Origin: Candidatus Magasanikiibacteriota bacterium
GTDB taxonomy: Bacteria; Patescibacteriota; Patescibacteriia; Magasanikbacterales; GWA2-37-8
Assembly: GCA_041665405.1 (NCBI GenBank)
Contig: JBAYIZ010000003.1
Span: 2,589 to 66,588, forward strand
Reading direction: 5' to 3'
DNA length: 64,000 bases
Part shown: positions 5,732-21,347 of the stretch, one piece after another
Layout: every line of letters begins with the position of its first letter
How positions within the stretch are numbered: position 1 is the first letter of the stretch
Notes under the pieces: model-generated
The model's database searches: none
Seen by the model: only the letters and a program-made list of their open reading frames with translations
What the model was told of the DNA's origin: nothing
Translations under genes and position numbers: made by a program

Positions 5732-6316
5732 ATGTACAAAATTAACTTATCAAAAATTAAAGAAATAAAAATACTAAAAAACTTTAAAATTGGTTGGCAT
5801 AGCTTAAATTTTTTTGAAAGATCCCAAATAATTTTAATGATAATACTAAGTCTCTGCGCTAGTTTTATATCATTAAAACAAACAGACATAAACAATCGAC
5901 TGCTTCTATTAGAAGAAAAAAAGACAGAACCTATACTAAGTGTTGAAATAGGTGAATATAGCAAACCAACAACAAGCACGATACTTATAAATCCAATTTT
6001 ATACAACGCTGGATCTGTCCCTGTTAGTATAATAGGGACAGGATTTCATGTGTATGAAGAAAATACAATGAAAAATATATTTAGTCTCACTTATGGTCGA
6101 GGATTGGCGGGAGAAAAAATTGGACCAGGTAGTAGCAAATCTTTACCATATGAAATCACTGCTTCTAAAGAAATTTTTTCATTGTATAGATTCGACATTA
6201 TTTATAAAAATGAATCTAATAACAAAGAAAAGTGCGAAACTATTATTTTATCAAAAGGAGATAAAAACTTTTTTCAAATAAATAAAACAGTTGGTTGCCC
6301 TAAAAATATTAGATAG
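5732..6316 (+). CDS. hypothetical protein with N-terminal transmembrane/signal anchor
   Basis: 194-aa ORF in a very AT-rich segment. One N-terminal hydrophobic helix; no recognisable domain. Confidence 0.4.
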   Translation: MYKINLSKIKEIKILKNFKIGWHSLNFFERSQIILMIILSLCASFISLKQTDINNRLLLLEEKKTEPILSVEIGEYSKPTTSTILINPILYNAGSVPVSIIGTGFHVYEENTMKNIFSLTYGRGLAGEKIGPGSSKSLPYEITASKEIFSLYRFDIIYKNESNNKEKCETIILSKGDKNFFQINKTVGCPKNIR

Positions 6317-6394
6317 ATTAGTCTTGATGCATTTTATATAAAATATTGTTATTTTTTTTATAAAATGATATAATAAATAAGTAAAATATAAAAT

Positions 6395-6610
6395 ATGAGA
6401 TATAGGTTTGAAGAATTATTTCAAAAAAACCCAGATGGATCACTAACTCCCAAGAAAACAATACACATAAATGGGGTTACGTTTGGGTATGGTATTACAT
6501 TTCAAAGAGGAGTTGCTTTTGGAGGGATCGATTTTTTTAATTTTGAAAATAAAGATATTGAAGCAAACGAGATAGATGGGGTACTTAGTATCAAAGGATT
6601 TTACAATTAA
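6395..6610 (+). CDS. hypothetical small protein
   Basis: 71-aa ORF preceded by AT-rich promoter-like sequence. No family recognised. Confidence 0.25.
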   Translation: MRYRFEELFQKNPDGSLTPKKTIHINGVTFGYGITFQRGVAFGGIDFFNFENKDIEANEIDGVLSIKGFYN

Positions 6611-6613
6611 TTT

Positions 6614-6982
6614 ATGATTGAAAACCAACCAGATATAACACTAGAACAGGCCATAAGAAAAACAAAAGATGCTGGGATAACCTTAAACTTCGACAAAGGT
6701 CAAACAGTTGCTGGTGATCTTTTTCAACTTCAACAAGATATTAGAAAAACCAACTCCACCATTGAACATATTAAATGGGTTTTTGGTGCCATTTTAATAG
6801 GTTCTGTTTTTGCAACTATAGTTTTACTTGCAGATTATGCAAATTTTGCAAGTACTGCATATATACAATTTAATCAAACAATAGAAGAACAAAATAAAGA
6901 TCACGAAACAGTTGAATCTATTAAAACTGATATTGAATTTATCAAAAATAATTTAAATAGTTTAAATTCAGGAAAAAAATAA
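6614..6982 (+). CDS. hypothetical membrane-anchored protein
   Basis: 122-aa ORF with one central TM helix (WVFGAILIGSVFATIVLLA). It starts 4 nt after the previous ORF. Confidence 0.35.
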   Translation: MIENQPDITLEQAIRKTKDAGITLNFDKGQTVAGDLFQLQQDIRKTNSTIEHIKWVFGAILIGSVFATIVLLADYANFASTAYIQFNQTIEEQNKDHETVESIKTDIEFIKNNLNSLNSGKK

Positions 6983-7004: not shown

Positions 7005-7667
7005 ATGAAACTCAAGGAGGTGCCGGCCGTGGATAGGCCTAGAGAAAAACTATCCAAATATGGTCCAGAAAAATTATCAAATAAGGAGTTGCTAGCGATT
7101 CTACTCGGTTCAGGAGTAAAAGGAACAAATGTAGTACAGCTGTCAAACAAAATACTCAAGAAGTTTAAAACAGAAAAACTTTCACAAGCTTCATTTGAAG
7201 ATTTAAAAAATACTTTTGGTTTGGGTCCAGCCAAAGCATGTTTGTTGGTTGCTTGTTTTGAACTCGGTCGTCGTTTTTTAAAAGACAAAAAACACAACTT
7301 AATATTATCTCCAAAGGATGTTTGGGAAAATCTCAAAGATATTCGCGATCACAAAAAAGAACATTTTGTGGTTTTTTATTTGGACACCAGAAACCAAGAG
7401 ATAAAAAGAGAAATAATATCCGTCGGCACACTCAATGCTAACCTCATACATCCACGCGAAGTATTTGAACCAGCCATCATGCACAGTGCAGCACAGCTAA
7501 TAGTAGCCCACAATCATCCATCGGGAAATCCAGAGCCATCGGAAGAAGATTTAGCCATAACAAAACGACTGGCAGAGGCGGGGAAAATACTTGGGATAGA
7601 TTTATTAGATCATATCATAATAGCCAAAGAAAGCTTTATCAGTTTGAACGACAGAGGCATTTTGTGA
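7005..7667 (+). CDS. radC: RadC-family JAB/MPN-domain protein (UPF0758)
   Basis: JAMM metalloprotease motif HNHPSGNPEPSEED plus the N-terminal helix-hairpin-helix-like region typical of RadC. A perfect palindrome ATCGCTTAtttAAGCGAT follows at ~7688. Confidence 0.85.
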   Translation: MKLKEVPAVDRPREKLSKYGPEKLSNKELLAILLGSGVKGTNVVQLSNKILKKFKTEKLSQASFEDLKNTFGLGPAKACLLVACFELGRRFLKDKKHNLILSPKDVWENLKDIRDHKKEHFVVFYLDTRNQEIKREIISVGTLNANLIHPREVFEPAIMHSAAQLIVAHNHPSGNPEPSEEDLAITKRLAEAGKILGIDLLDHIIIAKESFISLNDRGIL

Positions 7668-7753: not shown

Positions 7754-9205
7754 ATGTTTGAACAATCATTCAAAAACATTGATAATATCCTCCATACAGA
7801 TTCTGGTTGTGGAACAGAACTGGATTATGTAGAACAAACCTCTTGGGTTCTTTTTTTGAAATACCTAGATGATTTGGAAGAGACCAAAAGAACTGAATCG
7901 GCACTGGCTGGGAAGAAATACGCCTATATTTTGTCTCCCGAATATCGTTGGGACGCATGGGCGTGTCCAAAAAATAGCGAAGGCAAATTAGACCATAACA
8001 AAGCACTGGATGGTGACGATCTCTGTGGTTTTGTAAACAACAAACTTTTTCCATATCTTAAAAAATTTAAAGCCGAAGAACCAAATACCATTGAATACAA
8101 AATCGGTGAAATTTTTTCTGAATTGAAAAATAAAATCTCTAGCGGATATAAATTGCGAGAAATATTGAACATCGTGGATTTAATGCACTTTCGTTTGTAT
8201 GAAGAAAAACACGAACTTTCACATCTCTACGAAGCCAAAATAAAGAACATGGGCAACGCCGGACGCAATGGTGGCGAATACTACACGCCACGCCCACTCA
8301 TCAAAACAATTGTGAAAGTAGTCGATCCAAAGATTGGAGACACTGTTTATGACGGTGCCTGTGGTAGCGCTGGATTTTTGGTTGAAGCGTATAAATATCT
8401 AACAGAAAATCAATCCAAACTATCATCAAGCCAGATGGCAACCTTGCAAAACAAAACTTTTTACGGCAAAGAAATAAAATCTCTCGCCTATATCATCGGT
8501 ATCATGAATATGATCCTGCATGGTATTGAAGCACCAAATATAAAACACACCAATACACTTGCAGAAAACATCAATGATATCCAAGAAAAAGATCGTTACT
8601 CCGTAATTCTGGCAAATCCGCCTTTTGGCGCTGGTATCGGCCGTGAAATTCAACAAAACTTTCCAATCAAAACTGGTGAGACCGCTTTTCTTTTTCTCCA
8701 GCATTTTATTAAAATTTTAAAAGCTAGAGGCCGAGCAGGTATTGTTATCAAAAATACTTTTCTTTCCAATACGGATAACGCATCGGTTTCATTGCGTAAA
8801 TTACTTTTAGAAAATTGCAATCTACACACAGTATTAGATTTGCCAGGTGGTGCTTTTCAGGGTGCGGGAGTAAAAACGGTAGTGTTATTTTTTGAGAAGG
8901 GTACATCTACAAAAAAAGTTTGGTTTTATCAGCTCAATCTTGAGCGCAATCTTGGAAAAGGCAACCCATTGAACGAAGCAGATTTGGCCGAGTTTGTGGA
9001 ACTACAAAAGACCACGGCGAACAGCGATAATTCATGGAGTGTGGATGTTAAAGATATTGATCAGACTACTTTTGATTTGTCAGTAAAAAACCCAAATAAA
9101 AATAATGAGGTGATTTTAAGAGAGCCAAAAGATATTTTAGTAGAGATGAAGGACTTGGATATAAAAATTCAGAGTAGTGTAATTAGTATAAAAAAACTTC
9201 TTTAA
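7754..9205 (+). CDS. hsdM: type I restriction-modification system DNA methyltransferase subunit M
   Basis: N6-adenine MTase motifs: ILANPPFGAG (motif IV NPPF) and the SAM-binding ...VYDGACGSAGFLVEA.... The N-terminal HsdM_N-like region is present. Gene is followed in the same operon by hsdS and hsdR. Confidence 0.92.
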   Translation: MFEQSFKNIDNILHTDSGCGTELDYVEQTSWVLFLKYLDDLEETKRTESALAGKKYAYILSPEYRWDAWACPKNSEGKLDHNKALDGDDLCGFVNNKLFPYLKKFKAEEPNTIEYKIGEIFSELKNKISSGYKLREILNIVDLMHFRLYEEKHELSHLYEAKIKNMGNAGRNGGEYYTPRPLIKTIVKVVDPKIGDTVYDGACGSAGFLVEAYKYLTENQSKLSSSQMATLQNKTFYGKEIKSLAYIIGIMNMILHGIEAPNIKHTNTLAENINDIQEKDRYSVILANPPFGAGIGREIQQNFPIKTGETAFLFLQHFIKILKARGRAGIVIKNTFLSNTDNASVSLRKLLLENCNLHTVLDLPGGAFQGAGVKTVVLFFEKGTSTKKVWFYQLNLERNLGKGNPLNEADLAEFVELQKTTANSDNSWSVDVKDIDQTTFDLSVKNPNKNNEVILREPKDILVEMKDLDIKIQSSVISIKKLL

Positions 9206-9208
9206 GAT

Positions 9209-10504
9209 ATGGATTTTTCAAAGTTCACTTTTAATAAAAAATACACTCGGTATGATAAGCAATTTGAGTTGTTTTTTGATTTTGATCTTAAGGAAATTAC
9301 CGGACACAATAGAAAAACTTTTGATTACGGACTGAGTTTGCGTTACTTTCTTGAAAATAATCCCGGAAAACAAATTTTTTTAACCTTAACACAAGTATCT
9401 GACTTTTGTGAAGAATCAAATAAGTTAATTATAAACTTAAAGTCATATCAGGATTTTTGTAAGAAAATTAGCCAAAATGGCAAAGATAAAACTCAAGCAT
9501 TTCTTGCTCAAAAGTTGAAACATTACTCGGAAAATGAAAAGAAAGAAATTATTGCTAGTTCAACTGGAGAAGAAATAATAGAAAGGACGAGAGACTTTAC
9601 AGAAGATCAAAAAAAAGAGCTCGTTAAAGCAAATGCTACTGAAACGAATATATTTGAGGCAATAAAGACTCTAAGTGTAGAATCTCAAAGTAAAATATTT
9701 GAATTTTTACGATCTCAAAAAGGTTTAGATGTCTCTGGGAAAATCATTGAAACAACTGAAGAAGTTCTAAATATTTTAAATGGCCTTGAAAATATTGAGC
9801 CTGAAATTCTAAAGACGATTTTAAACAAATTAGATGAAAAAGAAAAAATTAACACTATTCTTGAAACATTGTCCAGGATAGAACTGAAGCATCTATCTGC
9901 CGCTAATAAGCAAAAGATTTATCATGCAGAGCTTAACAATTTAAAGCAACTTTTAGAATTGGAGGAGAATGGAAGTATAGTCGAGACAATAAAAAATTAT
10001 GGAAATTTAAGTTCATATATAGCAGGACAGCCTGAAAAAATATTCCAAAATTGGATTGAAAGAAATTTGTGGGTTTTTGGGATTGAGTATATAAAAAAAC
10101 ACGATGGAAGAAAGGTGGCTTTATTTAGTGAAGGGGATATACTAATGGAGTCAATGGATGGATTTTTAGACTTAATAGAGATTAAAAGACCCAAATACGG
10201 AATTTTTCAATATGACACCAATCACAATAGCTATTATTCATCACCAGATTTATCAAAAGTCATTGGACAGTGCTTGCTTTACTTGCAAAAAATGGATGAT
10301 CAAAAACTTGTTTTAGAAAAAGAGCACAAAGTGAAAATACTACGACCTAGAATAAAAATTATTGCAGGAAGAACAAACGAATTTAAGGACGAGCAATTTG
10401 AAGCTCTACGAATGTTAAATTCTAACCTAAACCACATCCAAATTATATCCTACGATTATCTTTTGAGTTGTGGAAAAAAAATTATTTCTTTATATGAGAA
10501 TTAA
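9209..10504 (+). CDS. hypothetical protein with C-terminal PD-(D/E)xK (RecB-like, Shedu/DUF4263-like) nuclease domain
   Basis: Starts 3 nt after the hsdM stop. The C-terminal ~150 aa carry ...SEGDILMESMDGFLDLIEIKRP... (D...D-hIEIK = D/ExK) followed by GQCLLY (QxxxY), the RecB-family motif set. The N-terminal 270 aa are helical and Lys/Glu-rich. The DUF4263/Shedu assignment is from memory and not verified. Confidence 0.45.
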   Translation: MDFSKFTFNKKYTRYDKQFELFFDFDLKEITGHNRKTFDYGLSLRYFLENNPGKQIFLTLTQVSDFCEESNKLIINLKSYQDFCKKISQNGKDKTQAFLAQKLKHYSENEKKEIIASSTGEEIIERTRDFTEDQKKELVKANATETNIFEAIKTLSVESQSKIFEFLRSQKGLDVSGKIIETTEEVLNILNGLENIEPEILKTILNKLDEKEKINTILETLSRIELKHLSAANKQKIYHAELNNLKQLLELEENGSIVETIKNYGNLSSYIAGQPEKIFQNWIERNLWVFGIEYIKKHDGRKVALFSEGDILMESMDGFLDLIEIKRPKYGIFQYDTNHNSYYSSPDLSKVIGQCLLYLQKMDDQKLVLEKEHKVKILRPRIKIIAGRTNEFKDEQFEALRMLNSNLNHIQIISYDYLLSCGKKIISLYEN

Positions 10505-10536
10505 TTGGCAGATACAATTTTTTAAAAGGAAATTAT

Positions 10537-11403
10537 ATGAGTAGAATTTTTGATTTTAATAAACGTTTTGGAAAAACTGTTGACCCTGAAGAAGTAAAAC
10601 ATGATTTTGTAAATAAAATTACTCATTATCTTATCGAACCTCTGGATGAGAAGGCAGGTTTACGTTATGGAGAGTACAGTAATAGTACTGAAATATTTAA
10701 TTTTGTGGCGATGGAATTTAATCAAAACCCGACAAATATTATATATTTACACAACAGAAATCATTTCTATTCTGATGATATTTACCGTCCATCTTTTAAG
10801 ATTTTTTCTGATGGCGTTTTTGAAAAAACCCTTATATTAGTAGAAATTTTTTATGATTATCTTTCAACGCACAGCATCCCTGGCACGGGTGAAAAGCAGT
10901 GGTCAGAAAATATAAATAAAATTGTCGCGTATGCTCTTAACCAGCCAGTATCGCTTGGCATCTCGTGGCGTGATGGAAAATTTTATCCTGAAGGAGCCGA
11001 AGAATTTGATGAAAAACTTATTTCGGATGTATTAAAATGGCTTGAACAAAAACCAAAAATTCAGGCTTTATACAAAAATGCACTTGATCAGTATTCTCAA
11101 TCATTAAGTGATAATATTAAGCGTAAAGATGTTATGAGTAATGCTTTTCAAGCTGTAGAACAACTTACCCAAGAATATCTGAAAAGCCCCAAACCGTCAT
11201 TTGATAATAATTTTAATTCATTAGTTGATAAACTTGTTATTGATAAAGAATGGAAAAAAATATTTAATTCTTACAAAGAATTAAGTAAAGAATTTGGGCG
11301 ACATGCAGGTAGTGGAGACAGCTTTATTCCTACACAAGAAGATACTGAAGCATTTTTATATTTGTCTGGTTTGATAATGAGATTAATACTTGAAAAAGTA
11401 TGA
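10537..11403 (+). CDS. hypothetical protein (no recognisable domain), embedded in the hsd operon
   Basis: 288-aa ORF with a good RBS (AAAGGA) 7 nt upstream. Its stop overlaps the hsdS start (ATGA), which implies translational coupling. Confidence 0.5.
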   Translation: MSRIFDFNKRFGKTVDPEEVKHDFVNKITHYLIEPLDEKAGLRYGEYSNSTEIFNFVAMEFNQNPTNIIYLHNRNHFYSDDIYRPSFKIFSDGVFEKTLILVEIFYDYLSTHSIPGTGEKQWSENINKIVAYALNQPVSLGISWRDGKFYPEGAEEFDEKLISDVLKWLEQKPKIQALYKNALDQYSQSLSDNIKRKDVMSNAFQAVEQLTQEYLKSPKPSFDNNFNSLVDKLVIDKEWKKIFNSYKELSKEFGRHAGSGDSFIPTQEDTEAFLYLSGLIMRLILEKV

Positions 11404-12620
11404 AAAATAATTGGCCAACAAAAAAACTTGGCGAAGTATGTGAATTTTTGAATGGATTATGGACTGGCAAAGAACCACCTTATATCAAAGTTGGTGTGAT
11501 TAGAAATACTAATTTTACAAAAGATGGGACACTAGACGATTCTAATATTGCTTACCTAAATGTTGAAAAAAAACAATTTGAAAAAAGAAAATTAATTTGC
11601 GGTGATGTCATCCTTGAAAAATCTGGCGGTGGACCAAAGCAACCTGTTGGGCGAGTTATAATATTTAATAAGGACAAAGGCAGTTTTTCATTTAGCAATT
11701 TTACTTCGGTAATAAGAATAAAGGATCCTAAAGAATTGAATTTTAATTTTCTCCATCGGTTTTTATTTTTTTCTTATATTTCAGGCATCACCGAAAAAAT
11801 GCAAAGTCATTCAACGGGAATTAGAAATCTTGATTCGAAATTATATAAAAATATCGATATACCTCTTCCATCACTCCATGAACAACACCACATCGTAAAA
11901 ATTTTAGATGAGGTTTTTGCGAAGGTGGCGAAGGCGAAAGAAGATGTTGAAAAAAATTTACAAAATTCCAAAGCACTTTTTGAATCATATTTACAGAGTG
12001 TTTTTACTAATCCAAGAAAGGATTGGGATGAGAAAAAATTAGGAGAAGTTTGCAATTTTGTAAGAGGACCATTTGGGGGGAGCTTAAGAAAAAGTATTTT
12101 TAAAAAAGAGGGTTACGTAGTTTATGAACAACAACATGCCATATATAATCAATTTTCAAAGGTAAGATATTTTATTGACGAAAATAAATTTAATGAAATG
12201 AAAAGATTTGAATTAAGGTCAGGTGATTTGATTATGAGTTGCTCTGGAACTATGGGTAAAATAGCAATTGCACCAGTGGGCATTAAAAAAGGAATTATTA
12301 ATCAAGCGTTATTAAAACTTAGTCCAAACAAAGATTTGATCAATGTGTTTTTGAAAAACTGGATGGAGAGCGCTGTTTTTCAAAATGATCTTAAAAAATA
12401 CACTAAAGGAGCTGCTATAAAAAATGTAGTATCCGTAAAGATTTTGAAAGGAATTAAAATATACATACCAAAATTGGCGGAACAAAAATTAATAATTTCC
12501 AAACTCGACGCCCTTTCCGCCGAGACCAAAAAACTAGAAGCAATTTATAATCAAAAATTAGCAAATTTAGAAGAATTAAAAAAGTCCGTATTAAAAAAGG
12601 CATTCGCAGGGGAGTTGTAA
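11400..12620 (+). CDS. hsdS: type I restriction-modification system specificity subunit S
   Basis: Two target-recognition-domain halves separated by conserved helical repeats (...LPSLHEQHHIVKILDEVF... and ...IPKLAEQKLIISKLDALS...), the classic HsdS architecture. Confidence 0.88.
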   Translation: MKNNWPTKKLGEVCEFLNGLWTGKEPPYIKVGVIRNTNFTKDGTLDDSNIAYLNVEKKQFEKRKLICGDVILEKSGGGPKQPVGRVIIFNKDKGSFSFSNFTSVIRIKDPKELNFNFLHRFLFFSYISGITEKMQSHSTGIRNLDSKLYKNIDIPLPSLHEQHHIVKILDEVFAKVAKAKEDVEKNLQNSKALFESYLQSVFTNPRKDWDEKKLGEVCNFVRGPFGGSLRKSIFKKEGYVVYEQQHAIYNQFSKVRYFIDENKFNEMKRFELRSGDLIMSCSGTMGKIAIAPVGIKKGIINQALLKLSPNKDLINVFLKNWMESAVFQNDLKKYTKGAAIKNVVSVKILKGIKIYIPKLAEQKLIISKLDALSAETKKLEAIYNQKLANLEELKKSVLKKAFAGEL

Positions 12621-12648
12621 TAAACAGCATATTTGATATAATACGACT

Positions 12649-13668
12649 ATGAAGTTTACTCGCACAAAAAAGGTGTTATTTACGAACAATAAAGGCGGAG
12701 TTGGCAAAACCACGCTGGCTTTTAATTGTGCCATGTCCTTTGCCAAACAAGGGTATAAAACTGTATTGGTTGATCTTGATCCTCAATGCAATCTTTCCCG
12801 ATTATCTTTAGGCGACAATCGATATGAAAAGACACTATTTTCATCACAGGAAAAAGATATTTATGATGTGTTGAAAGGCGTGATAGAGGGTGGGTCAGAT
12901 ATTGATTTAGGTGTGCCGTTTATTCCTGTATCCAACAGCAACAATAATCTTTTTTTAATGAAAGGTAGTGTTAATCTTTCGCTGTATGAAAATATATTAG
13001 TTACGGCCTACGGACAAGCCGCCGCTGGCCAGCAACTTGGCTATTTTCAAACTAGTGCGATTGATAGGTTCCTTCGAGAAAGAGGATTAAATGACGAGGT
13101 GGATATTTTTGTAATAGATACATCTCCTAGCTTGTCGCTACTCAATCAAATTATTTTCCTTGGTTCAGATTATTTTGTTGTTCCTATGATGCCCGATGCT
13201 TTTAGCGTGCAAGGTATTGAAAATCTTGGTAGCATATTTGAAAAATGGAAACAAAATTGGAAAGTAACCGGCAAAGCTCTTTCTGGTAATACAGAAAGTA
13301 AATTTGTGCTTTCAGGTGATGGTCTTTTTATTGGGTATATTGTGAATTCATATAATGTATATGGCAAACAGCCAATAAAAGATCACCGCCATTGGATTGA
13401 AGAAATTCCGGCTAAAGTTAAAAAATATCTTTCAGAAAAACATGGACGAAATGGGCTGGTTGAAAAAAGTTGGAAAAATCCGCTGGCTGAAATTCAGGAT
13501 TATGGTAGAATTCCTGCAAAGTGTCAAGAAATTGGGGTAGCGATATTTGATCTTGACCCAGCGTTGATTGATGAAATTCATCTTGGAACTATAGAAAACA
13601 TTGAAAAGTCAAAAGAGGAATTTGGAATATTGACGCAAAATATTTTAAAAATATTAATTGATTATTAA
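12649..13668 (+). CDS. ParA/MinD-family P-loop ATPase (deviant Walker A)
   Basis: KGGVGKTT deviant Walker A, DLDPQCN (A' motif), hhhhDTSPS Walker B. 339 aa with a ~90-aa C-terminal extension. Located between hsdS and hsdR. Confidence 0.75.
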   Translation: MKFTRTKKVLFTNNKGGVGKTTLAFNCAMSFAKQGYKTVLVDLDPQCNLSRLSLGDNRYEKTLFSSQEKDIYDVLKGVIEGGSDIDLGVPFIPVSNSNNNLFLMKGSVNLSLYENILVTAYGQAAAGQQLGYFQTSAIDRFLRERGLNDEVDIFVIDTSPSLSLLNQIIFLGSDYFVVPMMPDAFSVQGIENLGSIFEKWKQNWKVTGKALSGNTESKFVLSGDGLFIGYIVNSYNVYGKQPIKDHRHWIEEIPAKVKKYLSEKHGRNGLVEKSWKNPLAEIQDYGRIPAKCQEIGVAIFDLDPALIDEIHLGTIENIEKSKEEFGILTQNILKILIDY

Positions 13669-13715
13669 AAATAGACCGTTAGCCCTTAAGTTTTTATGGA
13701 GTTAGCGGTTTTTTA

Positions 13716-16070
13716 ATGTATATGCTTAACGAATCAGAAACACGAGCCGAATATATTGACCCGAAACTTAAAGCGAGTGGTTGGGGTGAAGTGGAGGGAT
13801 CCAAAGTCCTGCGTGAATTTCGTATTACCGACGGTAAAATTCAAGCTGGAGGAATGCGCGGTAAACCGGAAATTGCGGATTATATTTTGGTATATAAAAA
13901 TCGCAAAATTGGGGTGATTGAAGCTAAGGCGGAAAATTTAGCGGCGTCTGAGGGTGTAGGACAAGCCAAAGCGTACGCGCAAAAATTACAGATTGATTTT
14001 ACCTATGCCACCAACGGCAAAGATATTTATGAAATTTCCATGAAAAACGGACAAGAAGGAAATGTTGTAGATTTTCCAACTCCGGATGAATTGTGGGACA
14101 AAACTTTTTCTGACCAACCAGCCACAAACGAAGAATGGAAAGAAAAATTTGATGCGGTTTCGTCTGAAGGTGAAAAAGGTAAACGATATTATCAAGAGCT
14201 GGCTATCAACAATGCACTGGATGCGGTGGCACAAGAAAAGACACGAATACTAATAACTATGGCCACGGGGACAGGTAAGACTGCGGTGGCGGCTCAAATC
14301 GCTTGGAAACTATTTCAGACCCGCTGGAATTTAAAGAGAGATGGATCTCGCAGACCACGAATATTGTTTTTGGCGGATAGAAATATTTTGGCTGACCAAG
14401 CATTTGGAAATGATTTTTCAATTTTTCCAACCGATGCTATGGTGCGTATCAATCCTTTGGATATTCGAAAAAAGGGTGGTGTGCCAATGAGTGGTAGTGT
14501 TTATTTTACAATTTTTCAAACTTTTATGAGTGGAGCGGAAGGTGCTCCTTATTTTGGAGAATATCCACCAGATTTTTTTGATTTTATTATCATTGATGAG
14601 TGTCATCGTGGCGGTGCTAATGATGAAGGTAATTGGCGTGGTATTTTGGAATATTTTTCTCCTGCAGTCCAACTTGGTTTGACTGCGACACCAAAGCGAC
14701 AAGATAATGTGGATACATATAAATATTTTGGTGAACCAGTTTATGTTTATTCACTCAAAGAGGGTGTGAATGATGGCTTTTTGACTCCATTTAAAGTTAA
14801 ACGAGTCAAAACTACTCTTGATGATTATATTTACACTTCAGATGATCAAATTGTTGAAGGTGAAGTGGAAGAAGGAAAAATATATACTGAACCGGATTTT
14901 AATAAAATAATTGAGATCAAGGCCAGAGAGGCAAAAAGAGTGAGAGTGGTATTAGATGAAATAAATCAAAATGAAAAGACAATAATATTTTGCGCGACCC
15001 AGGACCACGCGGCGGCCGTGCGTGATTTGGTAAATCAAATGAAAGATAATAAGGATCCGAATTATTGTGTGAGAGTGACTGCCAATGACGGATTTCGTGG
15101 TGAACAATTTTTGCGTGAATTTCAAGATAATGAAAAAACTATACCGACTATTTTGACCACTTCACAAAAACTTTCTACTGGCGTAGACGCGCGCAATATT
15201 CGCAATATTGTTTTGATGAGACCGGTAAATTCAATGATTGAATTTAAACAAATTATCGGTCGTGGTACTCGACTTTTTGATGGTAAAGAATATTTTACGA
15301 TTTATGATTTTGTGGATGCGTACCATCACTTTGCCGATCCTGAATGGGATGGGGAACCAGCAAGTGAAACAACAGAAGATCAACCAACGGTTAAATATGA
15401 AACCACGAACAAGGATTTTGGCGGATCTATTTTGCGAGAAAAACCGACTGAAAAATATAAAAAATTAAAAATAAAATTACGTGATGGAAAAGAACGAGAA
15501 ATACAGCATATGATTTCAACTTCTTTTTGGAGTGCTGACGGCAAACCAGTTTCTGTTCAAGAATTTATGGACAATATGTTTGGTACCATGCCAGAATTTT
15601 TTAAGAGCGAAGAAGAACTCCGGAAAATTTGGTCAAACCCAACCACACGAAAAGTATTTTTAGAAAAAATTGCTGAGGCTGGTTATGGAAAAGACGAACT
15701 GGAAACATTACAAAAATTGATTGACGCTGAACAGAGTGATTTGTTTGATGTGCTTGCCTATGTATCCTTTGCTAGCAAGCCAATTAGCAGAACGGAGAGG
15801 GTTGACACTACTAAAAAAATTATTTTAAAAGGATTGGATGAAAAACAAACAGAATTTTTGCAATTTGTTTTAAATAAATATATTGATAATGGAGTAGAAG
15901 AGCTAGACGAAGAAAAATTGCCACAATTATTGAATTTAAAATATTACGCTATTGCAAATGCTGAACAGGAACTAGGCGATGTGTTTAAGATTAGAAATTT
16001 ATTTATTGATTTTCAAAAAGGTCTCTACAGTAATAAAATAAAAAATAATATTACTATTCAAAAAAATTAA
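13716..16070 (+). CDS. hsdR: type I restriction enzyme endonuclease/helicase subunit R (EcoEI-like, short form)
   Basis: N-terminal HSDR_N-like MLNESETRAEYIDPKLKASGWG. SF2 helicase motifs MATGTGKT (I), DECHRG (II), LGLTATP (III). The C-terminal region resembles the EcoEI_R_C domain. Confidence 0.88.
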   Translation: MYMLNESETRAEYIDPKLKASGWGEVEGSKVLREFRITDGKIQAGGMRGKPEIADYILVYKNRKIGVIEAKAENLAASEGVGQAKAYAQKLQIDFTYATNGKDIYEISMKNGQEGNVVDFPTPDELWDKTFSDQPATNEEWKEKFDAVSSEGEKGKRYYQELAINNALDAVAQEKTRILITMATGTGKTAVAAQIAWKLFQTRWNLKRDGSRRPRILFLADRNILADQAFGNDFSIFPTDAMVRINPLDIRKKGGVPMSGSVYFTIFQTFMSGAEGAPYFGEYPPDFFDFIIIDECHRGGANDEGNWRGILEYFSPAVQLGLTATPKRQDNVDTYKYFGEPVYVYSLKEGVNDGFLTPFKVKRVKTTLDDYIYTSDDQIVEGEVEEGKIYTEPDFNKIIEIKAREAKRVRVVLDEINQNEKTIIFCATQDHAAAVRDLVNQMKDNKDPNYCVRVTANDGFRGEQFLREFQDNEKTIPTILTTSQKLSTGVDARNIRNIVLMRPVNSMIEFKQIIGRGTRLFDGKEYFTIYDFVDAYHHFADPEWDGEPASETTEDQPTVKYETTNKDFGGSILREKPTEKYKKLKIKLRDGKEREIQHMISTSFWSADGKPVSVQEFMDNMFGTMPEFFKSEEELRKIWSNPTTRKVFLEKIAEAGYGKDELETLQKLIDAEQSDLFDVLAYVSFASKPISRTERVDTTKKIILKGLDEKQTEFLQFVLNKYIDNGVEELDEEKLPQLLNLKYYAIANAEQELGDVFKIRNLFIDFQKGLYSNKIKNNITIQKN

Positions 16071-16074
16071 TAAT

Positions 16075-16980
16075 ATGCCATTATTTAAAAATACCGATTC
16101 GAAACTATCCATAATAAAAGAAAGGCCGATTGATTTAGAGAGGGATATTCAACATCTCACTGAAATTAATTTAGAAAATGTTTTTAACCTAGAATTTGTT
16201 AGTTCTGAATTTTCTTTACACAATTTCAGACTTGACACACTAGCTTTTGACAAGGAGACAGGTTCTTTTGTAATAATAGAATTTAAAAGAGATAGAAGCT
16301 TCAGTGTTATTGATCAAGGGTATGCCTATTTATCTTTAATGTTAAACAACAAGTCAGATTTTATTTTGGAATACAATGAAAAAACAAAAAAGAATTTAAG
16401 ACGTGATGATGTTGACTGGTCACAGTCCAGAGTAATGTTTGTAGCAAATTCATTTACTTCATATCAAATGAATGCAATAAATTTTAAAGATCTACCCATT
16501 GAATTGTGGGAAGTTAAAGTTTATGAAAACAATGTAATATTATTTAATCAACTCTTATCACAAGACTCTACTGAATCAATAAAAACTATCACAAAAAACA
16601 AAGCTATCGATTCAGTGAGTAACGAAGTAAAAGTCTATACATTAGAAGACCATTTGAATGTGAACGATAAAATAAAAGAATTATTTTATGCGCTAAGAGA
16701 AAAAATACTAGCGCTTAGTGATACAATCGAAGAAAGACCTAAAAAAATGTACGTTGCATACAGAGTTAGAAATACATTTGCGTATGTTCATATACAACAA
16801 TCGCAAATCAAGATCCACTTAACTATTGATATGAAAAAACTGGTTGATCCAAAGGGTTTTGTTAGGGATGTAAATAATATTGGCCATTTTGGTGGTGGTG
16901 ATTTAGAGGTGATTTTAGACAAAATGGAAAATCTAAATTATGTTTTTGATTTAATTGAACAATCTTATAAAGCATTATAA
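16075..16980 (+). CDS. predicted PD-(D/E)xK (RecB-like) nuclease-domain protein
   Basis: Starts 4 nt after the hsdR stop. The N-terminus carries ...LDTLAFDKETGSFVIIEFKRD... (D..D..hIEFK) and DQGYAYL (QxxxY). The C-terminal ~130 aa are an unassigned domain. Confidence 0.4.
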   Translation: MPLFKNTDSKLSIIKERPIDLERDIQHLTEINLENVFNLEFVSSEFSLHNFRLDTLAFDKETGSFVIIEFKRDRSFSVIDQGYAYLSLMLNNKSDFILEYNEKTKKNLRRDDVDWSQSRVMFVANSFTSYQMNAINFKDLPIELWEVKVYENNVILFNQLLSQDSTESIKTITKNKAIDSVSNEVKVYTLEDHLNVNDKIKELFYALREKILALSDTIEERPKKMYVAYRVRNTFAYVHIQQSQIKIHLTIDMKKLVDPKGFVRDVNNIGHFGGGDLEVILDKMENLNYVFDLIEQSYKAL

Positions 16981-17851: not shown

Positions 17852-18526
17852 ATGAATAAAAACTACCAAACCGCCATAAAACAACTACGATTAGAAAAAA
17901 ATATATCGCAATCTGACATTGCGCAAAAGATGGGTATTTCGCGCACCTCATATATTTCTTTTGAACAAGGTAAGCGCGACATCAGTCTATCCGAAGCGGG
18001 TGTTTTGGCCGATATATTTGGCATCTCCTTGGAAGATCTCAAAAATGGCGTAACACCGAATAATGAAAAATACAAACAAATGATTTTGGCTTTTTTGCGT
18101 TTGGATACCAAGATCACAAAGACCAAACTTGCTAAATTATTGTATTTTGCCGATTTTGGGTGGTTTTATTCTCACCTTGAAAGTATGAGCGGCATGTCAT
18201 ACCGTAAAATGGCGTATGGTCCAGTTTCAGATGCTTATTTTAGGATAGTTGACGATTTGTTTGACAACGGTCAAATTGATATTGAGCAAACCAAAGATGG
18301 GGCAATGTTAGTTTCTCAGACGCGCAGTGGCGCAAAAATTGATTTATCTGCTCTCAATACTGAAGAAAAAAAGTTAATATCCACTATTGAAAAAAAATGG
18401 AAAGGCAAAAAAACTTCTGAGATAGTTGATTTTACCCACAAGCAATTTCCATATTTATATGCTCAAGACAACGAAATTGTGTCATATGGTTTGTTTACCC
18501 AAGAAAATCCTGACGAAATTTTCTAA
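17852..18526 (+). CDS. XRE-family HTH fused to a Panacea (DUF4065/SocA-like) domain protein; putative antitoxin/regulator
   Basis: N-terminal HTH (QSDIAQKMGISRTSYISFEQGKRDISLSEAGVLADIFGISLEDL). The C-terminal KTKLAKLLYFADFGWFYSHLESMSGMSYRKMAYGPV matches the DUF4065 core (KLqKLLYfad...GPV). A palindromic operator lies immediately upstream. Confidence 0.7.
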   Translation: MNKNYQTAIKQLRLEKNISQSDIAQKMGISRTSYISFEQGKRDISLSEAGVLADIFGISLEDLKNGVTPNNEKYKQMILAFLRLDTKITKTKLAKLLYFADFGWFYSHLESMSGMSYRKMAYGPVSDAYFRIVDDLFDNGQIDIEQTKDGAMLVSQTRSGAKIDLSALNTEEKKLISTIEKKWKGKKTSEIVDFTHKQFPYLYAQDNEIVSYGLFTQENPDEIF

Positions 18527-18584: not shown

Positions 18585-19538
18585 ATGGAGGGGAAAAACA
18601 ATCAAATTATCATATACAATACTAAGGACGGCAAGACCAAGATTGAAGTTAAGCTAAATGACGAAACTGTATGGCTCACCCAGGCGCAAATGGCTGATTT
18701 GTTTCAGAAGAGCCAATCTACAATAAATGAACATATCCAAAATGTTTATGATGAGGGTGAATTGGAAAAAGAGCTAACCTTGCGTAAATTCGGAAATTCC
18801 GAAAATAGCATAGCTAAGCCAACCAACATTTATAATCTGGATGTGATCATCTCCGTTGGCTATCGTGTTAATTCCCTTCGAGGCACCCAATTCCGCATTT
18901 GGGCAACACAAAAATTGAAAGAATACATTATAAAAGGTTTTGTATTGGACGATGAGCGATTAGAAAGCGGACAGGTAGCCAAACCATACTTTCAGGAATT
19001 AGAAGAACGCATTCGCAAGATTCGCACTTCTGAAGCAAATTTCTATCAAAAGGTAAAAGATGTTTTTGCTTTAAGCGCGGATTACAATCCGAAGGCAGAT
19101 TATGCTCAGAAATTTTTCGCAGTAGTACAAAATAAATTTCACTTTGCTATTACCGGATTAACCGCAGCCGAAATTGTTAGCAGTCGCATAGACAGTGCCA
19201 AAGAAAATTTAGGGCTGACAAATTGGAAGGGTGAAATTATTACTCGTGATCAAGCGGAAGTCGCAAAAAATTATTTACAAGAACTAGAATTAAAAAGATT
19301 AAATTTACTGGTGGAACAATTTCTTTCTTTTGCTGAATTACAAAGTGTGGAACAGCGCGTCATGTATATGAATGATTGGATTATGAAACTGGATGGATTT
19401 TTGGTTTTGAATGATAAAGAAATTTTGGAAAATTCTGGCAGTGTGTCGCGCCATGACATGGAACAAAAGGTGCGCGAGGAATTAAAGAGATATAATCAGA
19501 AGGTTTTGGAAAATAAAAAACCCAATCAATTAGATTAG
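18585..19538 (+). CDS. RhuM-family protein (Virulence_RhuM, PF13310-like)
   Basis: N-terminus IIIYNTKDGKTKIEVKLNDETVWLTQAQMADLFQKSQSTINEHIQNVYDEGEL is the highly conserved RhuM-family opening. It lies 58 bp downstream of the Panacea gene on the same strand. Confidence 0.7.
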   Translation: MEGKNNQIIIYNTKDGKTKIEVKLNDETVWLTQAQMADLFQKSQSTINEHIQNVYDEGELEKELTLRKFGNSENSIAKPTNIYNLDVIISVGYRVNSLRGTQFRIWATQKLKEYIIKGFVLDDERLESGQVAKPYFQELEERIRKIRTSEANFYQKVKDVFALSADYNPKADYAQKFFAVVQNKFHFAITGLTAAEIVSSRIDSAKENLGLTNWKGEIITRDQAEVAKNYLQELELKRLNLLVEQFLSFAELQSVEQRVMYMNDWIMKLDGFLVLNDKEILENSGSVSRHDMEQKVREELKRYNQKVLENKKPNQLD

Positions 19539-19862: not shown

Positions 19863-21347
19863 ATGCACATCACCAAAACCGACTACCTCGAATACACCTT
19901 CTGCAAAAAGAACCTCTGGCTCAAAAAACACAAACCAGAGCTTTTTGATGGTGTCGAATTATCGGAATTTGAAAAGAAAATAATCGAAGAGGGGAACATG
20001 GCCGATGAATCAGCCCGCCATTTGTTTCCTGGTGGTGTGTTGGTAGATAGTTTTGGAGAGGATGCCGTGCATGACACCGCCCAATACCTGGAGAAAAAAA
20101 CAGCGGTGATATTTCAAGCGACCTTTGCGCAAGATGTTTTTTATATTCGCGCGGATATTTTGGTTTATGATCAATCCCAAGATGGCTATGAGCTGTATGA
20201 GGTGAAGGCCAGCAATGATGTCAAAAGAAAAGAGCCACATCATTATATCAACGACCTAGCTTTTCAAAAAAGTGTGATTGAAAAAAGTGGTTTGAAAATT
20301 ATTAAAACTGGCGTGATTCATTTGAACAGTGAATACCAAAGAGCGGGGGAAATTGATTATGAAAAATTATTTGTGATAGTGGATCTCAGTGATGAAGTGT
20401 TGGCCTCGCAAGAAAAAGTGCAAGCCCAGATGGAGGATATTAAAAAATATTTAAACATGCCGGAAGAAAAAGGGTGTGAATGTTTGTATCGCGGAAGAAA
20501 TGCTCAATGTACTACCTTTGCTTATTCCAACCCAGAGGTGCCAGAATATTCGGTGCATGATATCAATCGGATTGGGGCGAGTAAAAAAATACTTAATGAT
20601 TGGATAGATAGAGGGATATATGCGATTGAAGATATAGACAATCCACAGGTGCTCACTGGGGCCAAGAAGGCGCAATATGATGCGTGCTCGCTAGGCAAAC
20701 CGATGATTGATGAGGTGGCGATAAAAGAGGCGCTGGACAAATTGGTTTGGCCTTTGTATTTTTTTGATTATGAAGGATTTGTAAGTGCGATTCCGATGTT
20801 TGATGGTTTTGGGGCGTATGAACAAATTCCTTTTCAATATTCTCTGCATATTATGCAAGCGGATGGGAGTATAGAACATAGGGAATTTTTGATTACCGAT
20901 CCCAAAGGAGATCTCACCCGACCGCTGGTGGAACGGATGAAACAGGATATTGATCCGCGCGGGACGGTGATCGCGTGGTATAGCACTTATGAAAAACAAC
21001 GCAATTTGAAATTGGCACAGTTGCATCCGGACTATGCGAAATTTTTGGAGGAAATAAATGAGGGGATGTTTGATCTGATGACTATTTTTTCGGAAAATCT
21101 TTATGTGGATTCGGCTTTCAAGGGGAGCGCGAGTATCAAAAGGGTGTTGCCGGTGATTGTGCCGGAGCTAAGTTATAAAAATTTAAATATTTCCAAAGGG
21201 GATCAGGCGAGTGAGCGGTGGGAGCGGATGATTGGCAGTGATACGCCGGCGGAGGAGAAGAGACAGATTGAGAAGGATTTGTTGGAGTATTGTAAGATGG
21301 ATACTTGGGCGATGGTGAGGATATGGGAGAGGTTGAGGAAAATATAA
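19863..21347 (+). CDS. DUF2779-family protein with Cas4/RecB-like PD-(D/E)xK nuclease N-terminal domain
   Basis: N-terminal ITKTDYLEYTFCKKNLWLKKHKPELF matches the DUF2779 opening (lSKS.f..g.qC.k.lWl). ...ADILVYDQSQDGYELYEVK... carries a D...ELYEVK (ExK) motif. Three GTATACT repeats lie upstream. Confidence 0.55.
   Translation: MHITKTDYLEYTFCKKNLWLKKHKPELFDGVELSEFEKKIIEEGNMADESARHLFPGGVLVDSFGEDAVHDTAQYLEKKTAVIFQATFAQDVFYIRADILVYDQSQDGYELYEVKASNDVKRKEPHHYINDLAFQKSVIEKSGLKIIKTGVIHLNSEYQRAGEIDYEKLFVIVDLSDEVLASQEKVQAQMEDIKKYLNMPEEKGCECLYRGRNAQCTTFAYSNPEVPEYSVHDINRIGASKKILNDWIDRGIYAIEDIDNPQVLTGAKKAQYDACSLGKPMIDEVAIKEALDKLVWPLYFFDYEGFVSAIPMFDGFGAYEQIPFQYSLHIMQADGSIEHREFLITDPKGDLTRPLVERMKQDIDPRGTVIAWYSTYEKQRNLKLAQLHPDYAKFLEEINEGMFDLMTIFSENLYVDSAFKGSASIKRVLPVIVPELSYKNLNISKGDQASERWERMIGSDTPAEEKRQIEKDLLEYCKMDTWAMVRIWERLRKI

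Follow-up and report, generated by a model that had tools for sequence, protein, structure and literature searches.

Why do two genes stand between hsdM and hsdS in this type I restriction-modification (R-M) operon, and do they act together or merely share a site? The operon lies in a 64,000-nucleotide stretch of a Candidatus Magasanikiibacteriota genome (contig JBAYIZ010000003.1 of assembly GCA_041665405.1, positions 2,589 to 66,588; hereafter the window, whose own numbering is used throughout). The two open reading frames (ORFs) are ORF A (9209-10504, 431 amino acids) and ORF B (10537-11403, 288 amino acids), both on the + strand. An initial annotation, made from the sequence alone, had located them correctly and had read them as a self-contained two-gene defence module, a Shedu-like nuclease with a partner of no recognisable family. 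We now consider it probable that the hsdM-hsdS-hsdR operon serves as a landing pad on which defence passengers, each a single gene, have arrived independently (the Shedu nuclease, ORF B, the gene of a ParA-like ATPase and one of the PDC-S18 family), and that its two nested genes encode a Shedu nuclease and a HEPN-like protein of the ribonuclease (RNase) type.

Shedu and ORF B occur apart

No Shedu gene was found at any of the 13 distinct loci that carry an ORF B homologue. Conversely, no ORF of the ORF B family was found in 60 metagenomic Shedu loci (flanks up to 6 kb), which were scanned with a hidden Markov model (HMM) of 80 diverse ORF B members at E <= 1e-3. A broad ORF B alignment (A2) proved too divergent for scanning loci. 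The closest Shedu orthologues, with 79-85% identity, stand in operons of the order hsdM-Shedu-hsdS-hsdR or hsdM-99 aa-Shedu-hsdS, in which neither ORF B nor the ParA-like gene is present, and the hsd genes of these sister operons are near-identical to those of the window (about 840-930 bits for HsdM and about 1350 bits for full-length HsdR, each against the window protein). A 55%-identical Shedu from Nitrospirae (L014) that has the same N-terminal region is solitary. Shedu relatives as a whole have no conserved neighbours, and no partner gene is common to the 60 metagenome loci; from the contexts of its relatives, ORF A would be a single-gene system that needs no obligate partner. As judged from gene content, Shedu and ORF B thus appear to lack the conserved co-occurrence of a two-gene system, and the self-contained module of the initial annotation does not survive the comparison. 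The two are evidently genetically independent genes that were acquired separately, neither needing the other. This removes a false lead, namely a new two-gene Shedu system at this locus.

The homologues of ORF B are found in various surroundings. At 8 of the 13 loci, no hsd gene lies within about 8 kb: three of these loci are solitary among housekeeping genes (L007/L018, L008/L016 and L009/L019), one stands beside unknown genes (L001/L002), one belongs to an island with a resolvase and a type III R-M system (L005/L006), and L023, L024 and L025 are likewise without hsd genes. Type I hsd operons enclose the homologues of L003/L004, L017, L020, L021 and L022; with the window included, 6 of 14 loci (~43%) are of this kind, often with a 4-nucleotide overlap between the ORF B homologue and hsdM or hsdS. 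Three more distant members of the family were also placed. One is solitary among housekeeping genes (L086), and the other two lie in variable, defence-like regions, one with P4 cII, a HigB-like gene and M78 (L087) and the other with PycTM, M78 and Mrr_cat (L088). In L003 (3089-9582) and L004, the gene order is hsdR, a GHKL/DUF4325 protein, hsdM, the ORF B homologue (4-nucleotide overlap), DUF8370 and DUF4357; hsdS is not detectable nearby, and this may be a degenerate type I system or one whose specificity gene lies elsewhere.

ORF A is a Shedu nuclease

By its sequence, ORF A is identified as a bona fide and ordinary Shedu/SduA protein, the assignment that had been made from its letters. Pfam SduA_C (DUF4263/PF14082) matches residues 275-419 with E 1e-18 and 68.5 bits (cutoff 27), over profile positions 3-159 of 159, and ten PADLOC SduA models match it, the best with E 2.8e-40, so that the likeness to a nuclease greatly exceeds chance. 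The motifs D321-LIEIK326 and Q354-CLLY358, which had drawn attention to this ORF, are present as described, and in an alignment of 32 homologues E276, D310, D317, D321, E324, K326, Q354 and Y358 are invariant; motifs I-IV of the PD-(D/E)xK fold (E; D; ExK; Q) are all conserved. In Shedu of Bacillus cereus, motifs II, III and IV are D249, E264/K266 and Q295 (Gu et al., bioRxiv 10.1101/2023.08.10.552793). The spacing there is 15 residues from D249 to E264 and 31 from E264 to Q295, against 14 from D310 to E324 and 30 from E324 to Q354 in ORF A, the motifs having been assigned by spacing and not by structural superposition. Searches of PDB sequences with ORF A, as a single sequence or as a profile, matched no solved Shedu chain, and its membership therefore rests on the Pfam and PADLOC HMMs.

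The protein consists of a clade-specific N-terminal region (residues ~1-175), a linker and the DUF4263 PD-(D/E)xK domain (residues ~271-431, nucleotides 10019-10504). Residues ~1-175 match no Pfam family and are common to a small clade, mostly from the Candidate Phyla Radiation (CPR); most relatives are about 335 amino acids long and align to residues ~175-431 only. The Lys/Glu-rich N-terminal region remarked on at the outset is real but moderate, Lys and Glu making up 27% of residues 91-270 vs 17% elsewhere.

According to Gu et al. (bioRxiv 10.1101/2023.08.10.552793), 602 of 5,499 Shedu genes are encoded within R-M systems, type I included, and the nesting of Shedu in an R-M operon is therefore already known. 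The same authors describe Shedu as an auto-inhibited tetramer that is switched on by a conformational change. SduA works as a single-protein system, in which the N-terminal domains clamp free DNA ends and bring the PD/ExK domain into place to nick (Loeff et al., 10.1101/2023.08.10.552762). By analogy with these characterised proteins, ORF A would be expected to form an auto-inhibited oligomer; its N-terminal region would sense an infection cue, for example free DNA ends, and its PD-(D/E)xK domain, once triggered, would nick or cut DNA. Type I restriction makes linear DNA ends, the cue of E. coli SduA, and we may speculate that the two systems act in synergy.

ORF B belongs to a large, unannotated family

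Library scans assign ORF B to no Pfam, NCBIfam or PHROG family, in agreement with the earlier remark that it has no recognisable family. Nevertheless, it has many relatives. A word-indexed search gave 53 homologues with 27-100% identity, and a search of 1.84 billion representatives with a profile of ORF B found 822 clusters at E <= 1e-3, of which 568 also passed E <= 1e-10. Almost all members found by the profile are 260-290 amino acids long and align from end to end, and the family comprises about 800 clusters at 50% identity. Those that were sampled are all labelled 'hypothetical protein'. There was no credible Pfam match among 116 relatives (36 close and 80 diverse), searches of PDB sequences with ORF B profiles returned spurious helical matches only, such as FtsY and GGA3, and the family was not found in the viral contigs of IMG/VR. 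From this pattern of conservation, we regard ORF B as a real, conserved gene. An N-terminal fragment or a pseudogene of HsdS, an outcome that the initial annotation had named as refuting its reading, was considered and rejected: ORF B has no Methylase_S match, its family consists of full-length proteins of 260-290 amino acids under conservation, and its predicted fold, all-alpha with a hairpin, is unlike that of a target recognition domain (TRD).

PADLOC is the sole library that recognises the family. Its PDC-S32 model matches the window protein with 20.5 bits and E 9.8e-5, a partial match over profile positions 74-197 of 237, and it matches 34 of the 36 close and 57 of the 80 diverse relatives (best E 3.9e-19). 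These sequence matches fit a placement of ORF B in a distant sister family of PDC-S32, and not as a clear member. The PDCs of PADLOC are candidate families that occur within BREX, DISARM or type I R-M systems and were chosen by 'guilt-by-embedding' (Payne et al., bioRxiv 10.1101/2024.01.29.577857). A literature search found no published description of PDC-S32, which is not named in the accessible part of the supplements of Payne et al.

The predicted fold of ORF B resembles HEPN

An AlphaFold2 model of ORF B, built from 36 sequences, has a pLDDT (AlphaFold2's per-residue confidence measure) of 84.4. It shows an N-terminal helical domain (residues 1-135, or ~1-153 with the hairpin), a beta-hairpin at residues 142-151 that carries the highly conserved motif W-x-D-G-K-F-Y-P-E-G (GKFYPxG), and a C-terminal helical domain of HEPN fold (residues 155-288, nucleotides 10999-11403, with its helical part at 157-287 in the model). 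In HEPN domains, helix 2 bears an acidic residue, often in the form Ex3[KR], an insert separates helices 2 and 3, and the catalytic motif lies where helix 3 ends and the loop to helix 4 starts (Anantharaman et al. 2013, PMC3710099). In the model, the C-terminal domain is predicted to be an up-and-down bundle of four helices, and helix 222-233 forms an insert that separates helices 2 and 3. E208, on helix 195-215, is the conserved acidic residue of helix 2; the family consensus is ExLAK, close relatives have Ex3R, and the window protein has E208-x3-Q212. The dyad R255-H256 (codons 11299-11304, + strand) closes helix 237-253/255, the penultimate one, ahead of the loop to helix 267-287, just where HEPN domains carry Rx4-6H. 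At R255, H256, E208, E271, Y275 and R282, conservation is 90% or higher across 80 diverse members that share only about 25% identity. In this model, the conserved residues of ORF B would thus map as the description of HEPN predicts.

The structural comparison that had been proposed for ORF B gave a divided answer: the confident, HEPN-like model stands, and Foldseek found no significant match to the PDB. Only 2hsb reached a probability of 0.90, with a TM (template modelling) score of 0.70 normalised to the target. An Abi_C (PF14355) flag on the distant homologue P0053 was not reproduced and was not used. Taken together, the model makes the HEPN fold assignment of ORF B good but not iron-clad. 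Variant HEPN active sites are known in the AbiV and AF0298-type families (PMC3710099). ORF B would most likely act like an RNase of the HEPN abortive-infection (Abi) type, although it is not filed in any named HEPN family.

The host operon and its cargo slot

The type I R-M operon that hosts the two genes has hsdM, hsdS and hsdR intact, full length and on one strand; every gene from 7754 to 16980 is on the + strand, and all are closely spaced. The methyltransferase gene hsdM (7754-9205; Pfam N6_Mtase 4.7e-64 and HsdM_N, PADLOC MTase_I 5e-157) precedes ORF A, the Shedu gene recognised by Pfam SduA_C and PADLOC SduA, by 3 nucleotides, and ORF A precedes ORF B by 32. ORF B overlaps hsdS by the 4-nucleotide ATGA, the hsdS start overlapping the ORF B stop in GTATGA, as had been noted, and the strong ribosome-binding site ascribed to ORF B is indeed there, a Shine-Dalgarno AAGGA 7 nucleotides 5' of its ATG. 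The full-length specificity gene hsdS (11400-12620) encodes two TRDs (Pfam Methylase_S 7.7e-33, 2 stretches; PADLOC Specificity_I 1e-46). After a gap of 28 nucleotides comes a ParA/SIMIBI-like ATPase (12649-13668; Pfam AAA_31 2.2e-29 and CbiA 4.5e-16, PHROG ParA-like 2e-38), and 47 nucleotides further on hsdR, the restriction and translocase subunit (13716-16070; Pfam ResIII 2e-35 and C-terminal EcoEI_R_C 1.8e-26, PADLOC REase_I 1.8e-140). A 301-amino-acid gene of the PDC-S18 family with a DUF5655 C-terminus follows after 4 nucleotides (16075-16980; PADLOC PDC-S18 1.2e-118 from end to end, Pfam DUF5655 1.5e-14). It is plausible that the operon is a single transcription unit; consensus scans found 49 promoter-like sites within it vs 39±7 and 4 terminator-like sites vs 5.5, which is background and uninformative. 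The passengers are more AT-rich than the hsd backbone, the GC content being 29.7% for Shedu, 31.1% for ORF B and 28.8% for the 301-amino-acid gene, and 36.8% for hsdM and hsdR.

The junction of hsdM and hsdS carries other genes in related operons. In L020, from Gracilibacteria (817 bits for HsdM and 1346 bits for HsdR to the window), the order is hsdM, AbiLi/AbiLii, an ORF B homologue, a PDC-S42-like gene, hsdS, two small ORFs and hsdR, with the cargo at L020:6191-9835. In L017, hsdR and hsdM are followed by an ORF B homologue and a Ymh HEPN protein, with hsdS further on (cargo L017:4208-5801). These two loci show mix-and-match cargo between hsdM and hsdS. A third arrangement is that of L027, where hsdM, a 99-amino-acid ORF, Shedu (84%), a 220-amino-acid protein and a 140-amino-acid ORF precede hsdS, hsdR, a 231-amino-acid ORF and PDC-S57. 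The 220-amino-acid protein that follows Shedu there (L027:5514-6176, + strand) has an RNDFTH motif of Rx4H type and no Pfam or PADLOC family, and may be a second, unrelated HEPN-like passenger at the position of ORF B. As a comparative example from CPR, these operons present the hsdM-hsdS junction as a slot into and out of which Shedu, AbiL, Ymh-HEPN, the ORF B family and PDC-type genes are swapped.

The sequence around the slot may retain a trace of the exchange. DNA homology among the Shedu operons reaches the Shedu stop codon and then runs a few codons into the hsdS start; at that point, the sister operons L026 and L013 have a genuine hsdS start (MKTNWQTKKLG). L027 has a clear vestige of it, MRTKWQTKK (L027:5453-5500; 16/17 nucleotides past the stop codon), after which a different cargo begins. 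In the window, a possible vestige (MRINWQ, from an ORF that begins MRINWQIQ) lies at 10494-10544 on the + strand and overlaps the Shedu stop codon (9/13 nucleotides past the stop). These remnants would fit an ancestral hsdM-Shedu-hsdS operon that took up cargo secondarily, and the one in the window would mark where ORF B entered, although the fit is weak there.

The ParA-like ATPase is absent from all sister hsd operons and all ORF B loci examined. It may be a defence passenger or a leftover of the partition system of a mobile element. HEPN-ParA operons are known for the MAE_18760 family (PMC3710099); a functional link between the ATPase and ORF B was considered and rejected, as no other ORF B locus has a ParA homologue. 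By its family, the PDC-S18/DUF5655 gene 3' of hsdR would be a further candidate defence passenger of the operon.

Proposed mechanisms and alternatives

We propose the following scheme for the locus. In an ancestral hsdM-Shedu-hsdS arrangement, ORF B would have entered hsdS a few codons past its start, and both passengers, Shedu and ORF B, would borrow the hsd promoter and translational coupling. Shedu would work as an autonomous DNA-targeting nuclease, while ORF B would be a regulated, metal-independent effector of abortive infection of the RNase type, with its N-terminal domain as sensor or regulator. It is conceivable, if doubtful, that ORF B goes further and stands for an undescribed, widespread family of HEPN-derived single-gene immune effectors with an adjacent, non-canonical R-H catalytic dyad, which in hsd operons perhaps serve as a PrrC-like back-up that fires when type I R-M is neutralised. 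If active as an RNase or defence protein, the family would be a new HEPN variant among the Abi-type proteins and would offer a mechanism for the PDC-S32-like candidates of PADLOC.

Several observations weigh against this scheme. The canonical Rx4-6H motif is absent from ORF B, in which R255 and H256 are adjacent (EFGRH) and no His occurs 4-6 residues past R255. No sequence profile ties ORF B to any HEPN family, whether in Pfam, in PDB sequences or by hhalign, which gave a probability of 0.4% for the ORF B profile against a Ymh HEPN protein, and the best Foldseek hit of the full model in the PDB had an E of 0.86. ORF B, like PDC-S32, is at present a candidate for a defence role, and its RNase activity is putative. 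The vestige of the hsdS start in the window is a weak one by its sequence. The 13 sampled loci are a small set, mostly from CPR metagenome bins, and the share of them in hsd operons might stem from a genuine functional tie to type I R-M and not from hitch-hiking. The same lack of the canonical motif and of any significant Foldseek or profile match would also suit a catalytically inactive ORF B, a HEPN-like or otherwise helical protein, such as a regulator that binds nucleotides or ligands, an adaptor or a factor akin to an antitoxin, and perhaps no defence gene; HEPN domains that lack Rx4-6H are known as substrate-binding modules (PMC3710099), and several homologues lie among housekeeping genes. 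We hold such inactivity to be rather improbable, since the six residues conserved to at least 90% at about 25% identity are typical of an active site and lie where HEPN domains have their catalytic residues, the gene turns up repeatedly among defence cargo, and the family is related to PDC-S32.

A tie to type I R-M, were it real, might take the form of a guard resembling PrrC, in which HsdM/HsdS (or HsdR) would bind ORF B and hold it inactive until the R-M enzyme was knocked out by a phage anti-restriction protein; ORF B would then be free to cleave RNA as a back-up defence. The large enrichment of ORF B loci in type I hsd operons, the translational coupling of the gene (in L003 and L017 with hsdM, in the window with hsdS), the predicted HEPN fold, and the precedent of PrrC/EcoprrI, together with the proposal that R-M-linked HEPN proteins act in this way (PMC3710099), all speak for it. 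The guard is nevertheless unlikely in our judgement: the majority of homologue loci, with no hsd gene nearby, indicate that the family does not depend on R-M, and the regulatory ABC-ATPase domain that PrrC has is missing from ORF B. The other role named in the initial annotation, that of a modifier of the R-M complex, may or may not apply to ORF B, but the same 8 of 13 homologue loci are without neighbouring hsd genes. The remaining alternative is the one with which this locus was first described, Shedu and ORF B as a dedicated sensor and effector. The two genes are indeed adjacent, on the same strand, with a short spacer and a good ribosome-binding site, and L027, where the protein encoded after Shedu is a different one, unrelated and small, but has an Rx4H-like motif, might by analogy point to a repeated pairing of Shedu with HEPN. 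Set against this are the mutual absence of the two families from each other's loci, the nearest Shedu orthologues that do without ORF B, the experimental status of Shedu as a single-gene system (Gu et al.; Loeff et al.) and the vestigial hsdS start, which indicates secondary insertion. We give a dedicated pair very little credence, and the comparative data effectively refute it. The landing pad with independent passengers thus remains the reading that we prefer.

Neighbouring genes

Further genes of possible interest flank the operon. Directly upstream of hsdM is a RadC-like JAB protein (7005-7667, + strand), and between it and the end of the ATP synthase operon at about 5653 are three small ORFs that match no family (5732-6982; 28-29% GC). 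Downstream of the hsd island lie a protein with a helix-turn-helix and similarity to SocA/Panacea antitoxins (17852-18526, + strand), a RhuM-family protein (18585-19538, + strand; E 3e-95) and a DUF2779 protein (19863-21347, + strand). RhuM proteins have been reported beside R-M and PrrC loci (PMC3710099). The defence island could reach as far as about 21.3 kb.

Comparison with known systems

ORF A agrees well with the Shedu proteins of Gu et al. and Loeff et al., with which it shares a C-terminal DUF4263 PD-(D/E)xK domain that is complete in its motif residues, an N-terminal region that varies, autonomy as a single gene among its relatives and a site inside a type I R-M operon. It differs from other Shedu in about 175 clade-specific N-terminal residues and in the lack of a sequence-level match to solved Shedu structures.

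For ORF B, the nearest likeness is to the R-M-linked HEPN Abi proteins (AbiJ, AbiV, AbiA-CTD, Ymh, ApeA and others; Anantharaman et al. 2013, PMC3710099), which also combine an N-terminal domain with a C-terminal HEPN fold, as predicted here in about 280 residues. They have the helix-2 acidic residue, the helical insert between helices 2 and 3 and a basic residue with His where helix 3 ends, and they are often embedded in R-M operons; at least 16 HEPN clades are tied to such operons (PMC3710099). Unlike these families, ORF B has an adjacent R-H dyad in place of Rx4-6H and no profile similarity to them, and it forms a family of its own. PrrC/EcoprrI recalls ORF B in that a HEPN-type effector gene is nested within hsd genes, HEPN being a prediction for ORF B. 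PrrC/RloC, however, join an N-terminal ABC-ATPase to the C-terminal HEPN domain, whereas ORF B matches no ATPase or P-loop family and its N-terminal domain is helical, and the ORF B family is often found without any hsd genes. PDC-S32 of PADLOC-DB v2 is, like ORF B, a single-gene candidate, although its match to the window protein is partial and low-scoring. Independent single-gene passengers in an R-M operon would be ordinary for the field, and, as far as its model can be trusted, ORF B is a modestly interesting HEPN-variant candidate among them. It joins the HEPN-like defence candidates already known from within R-M systems, as a further member or a distant variant, and is not a new category of system.

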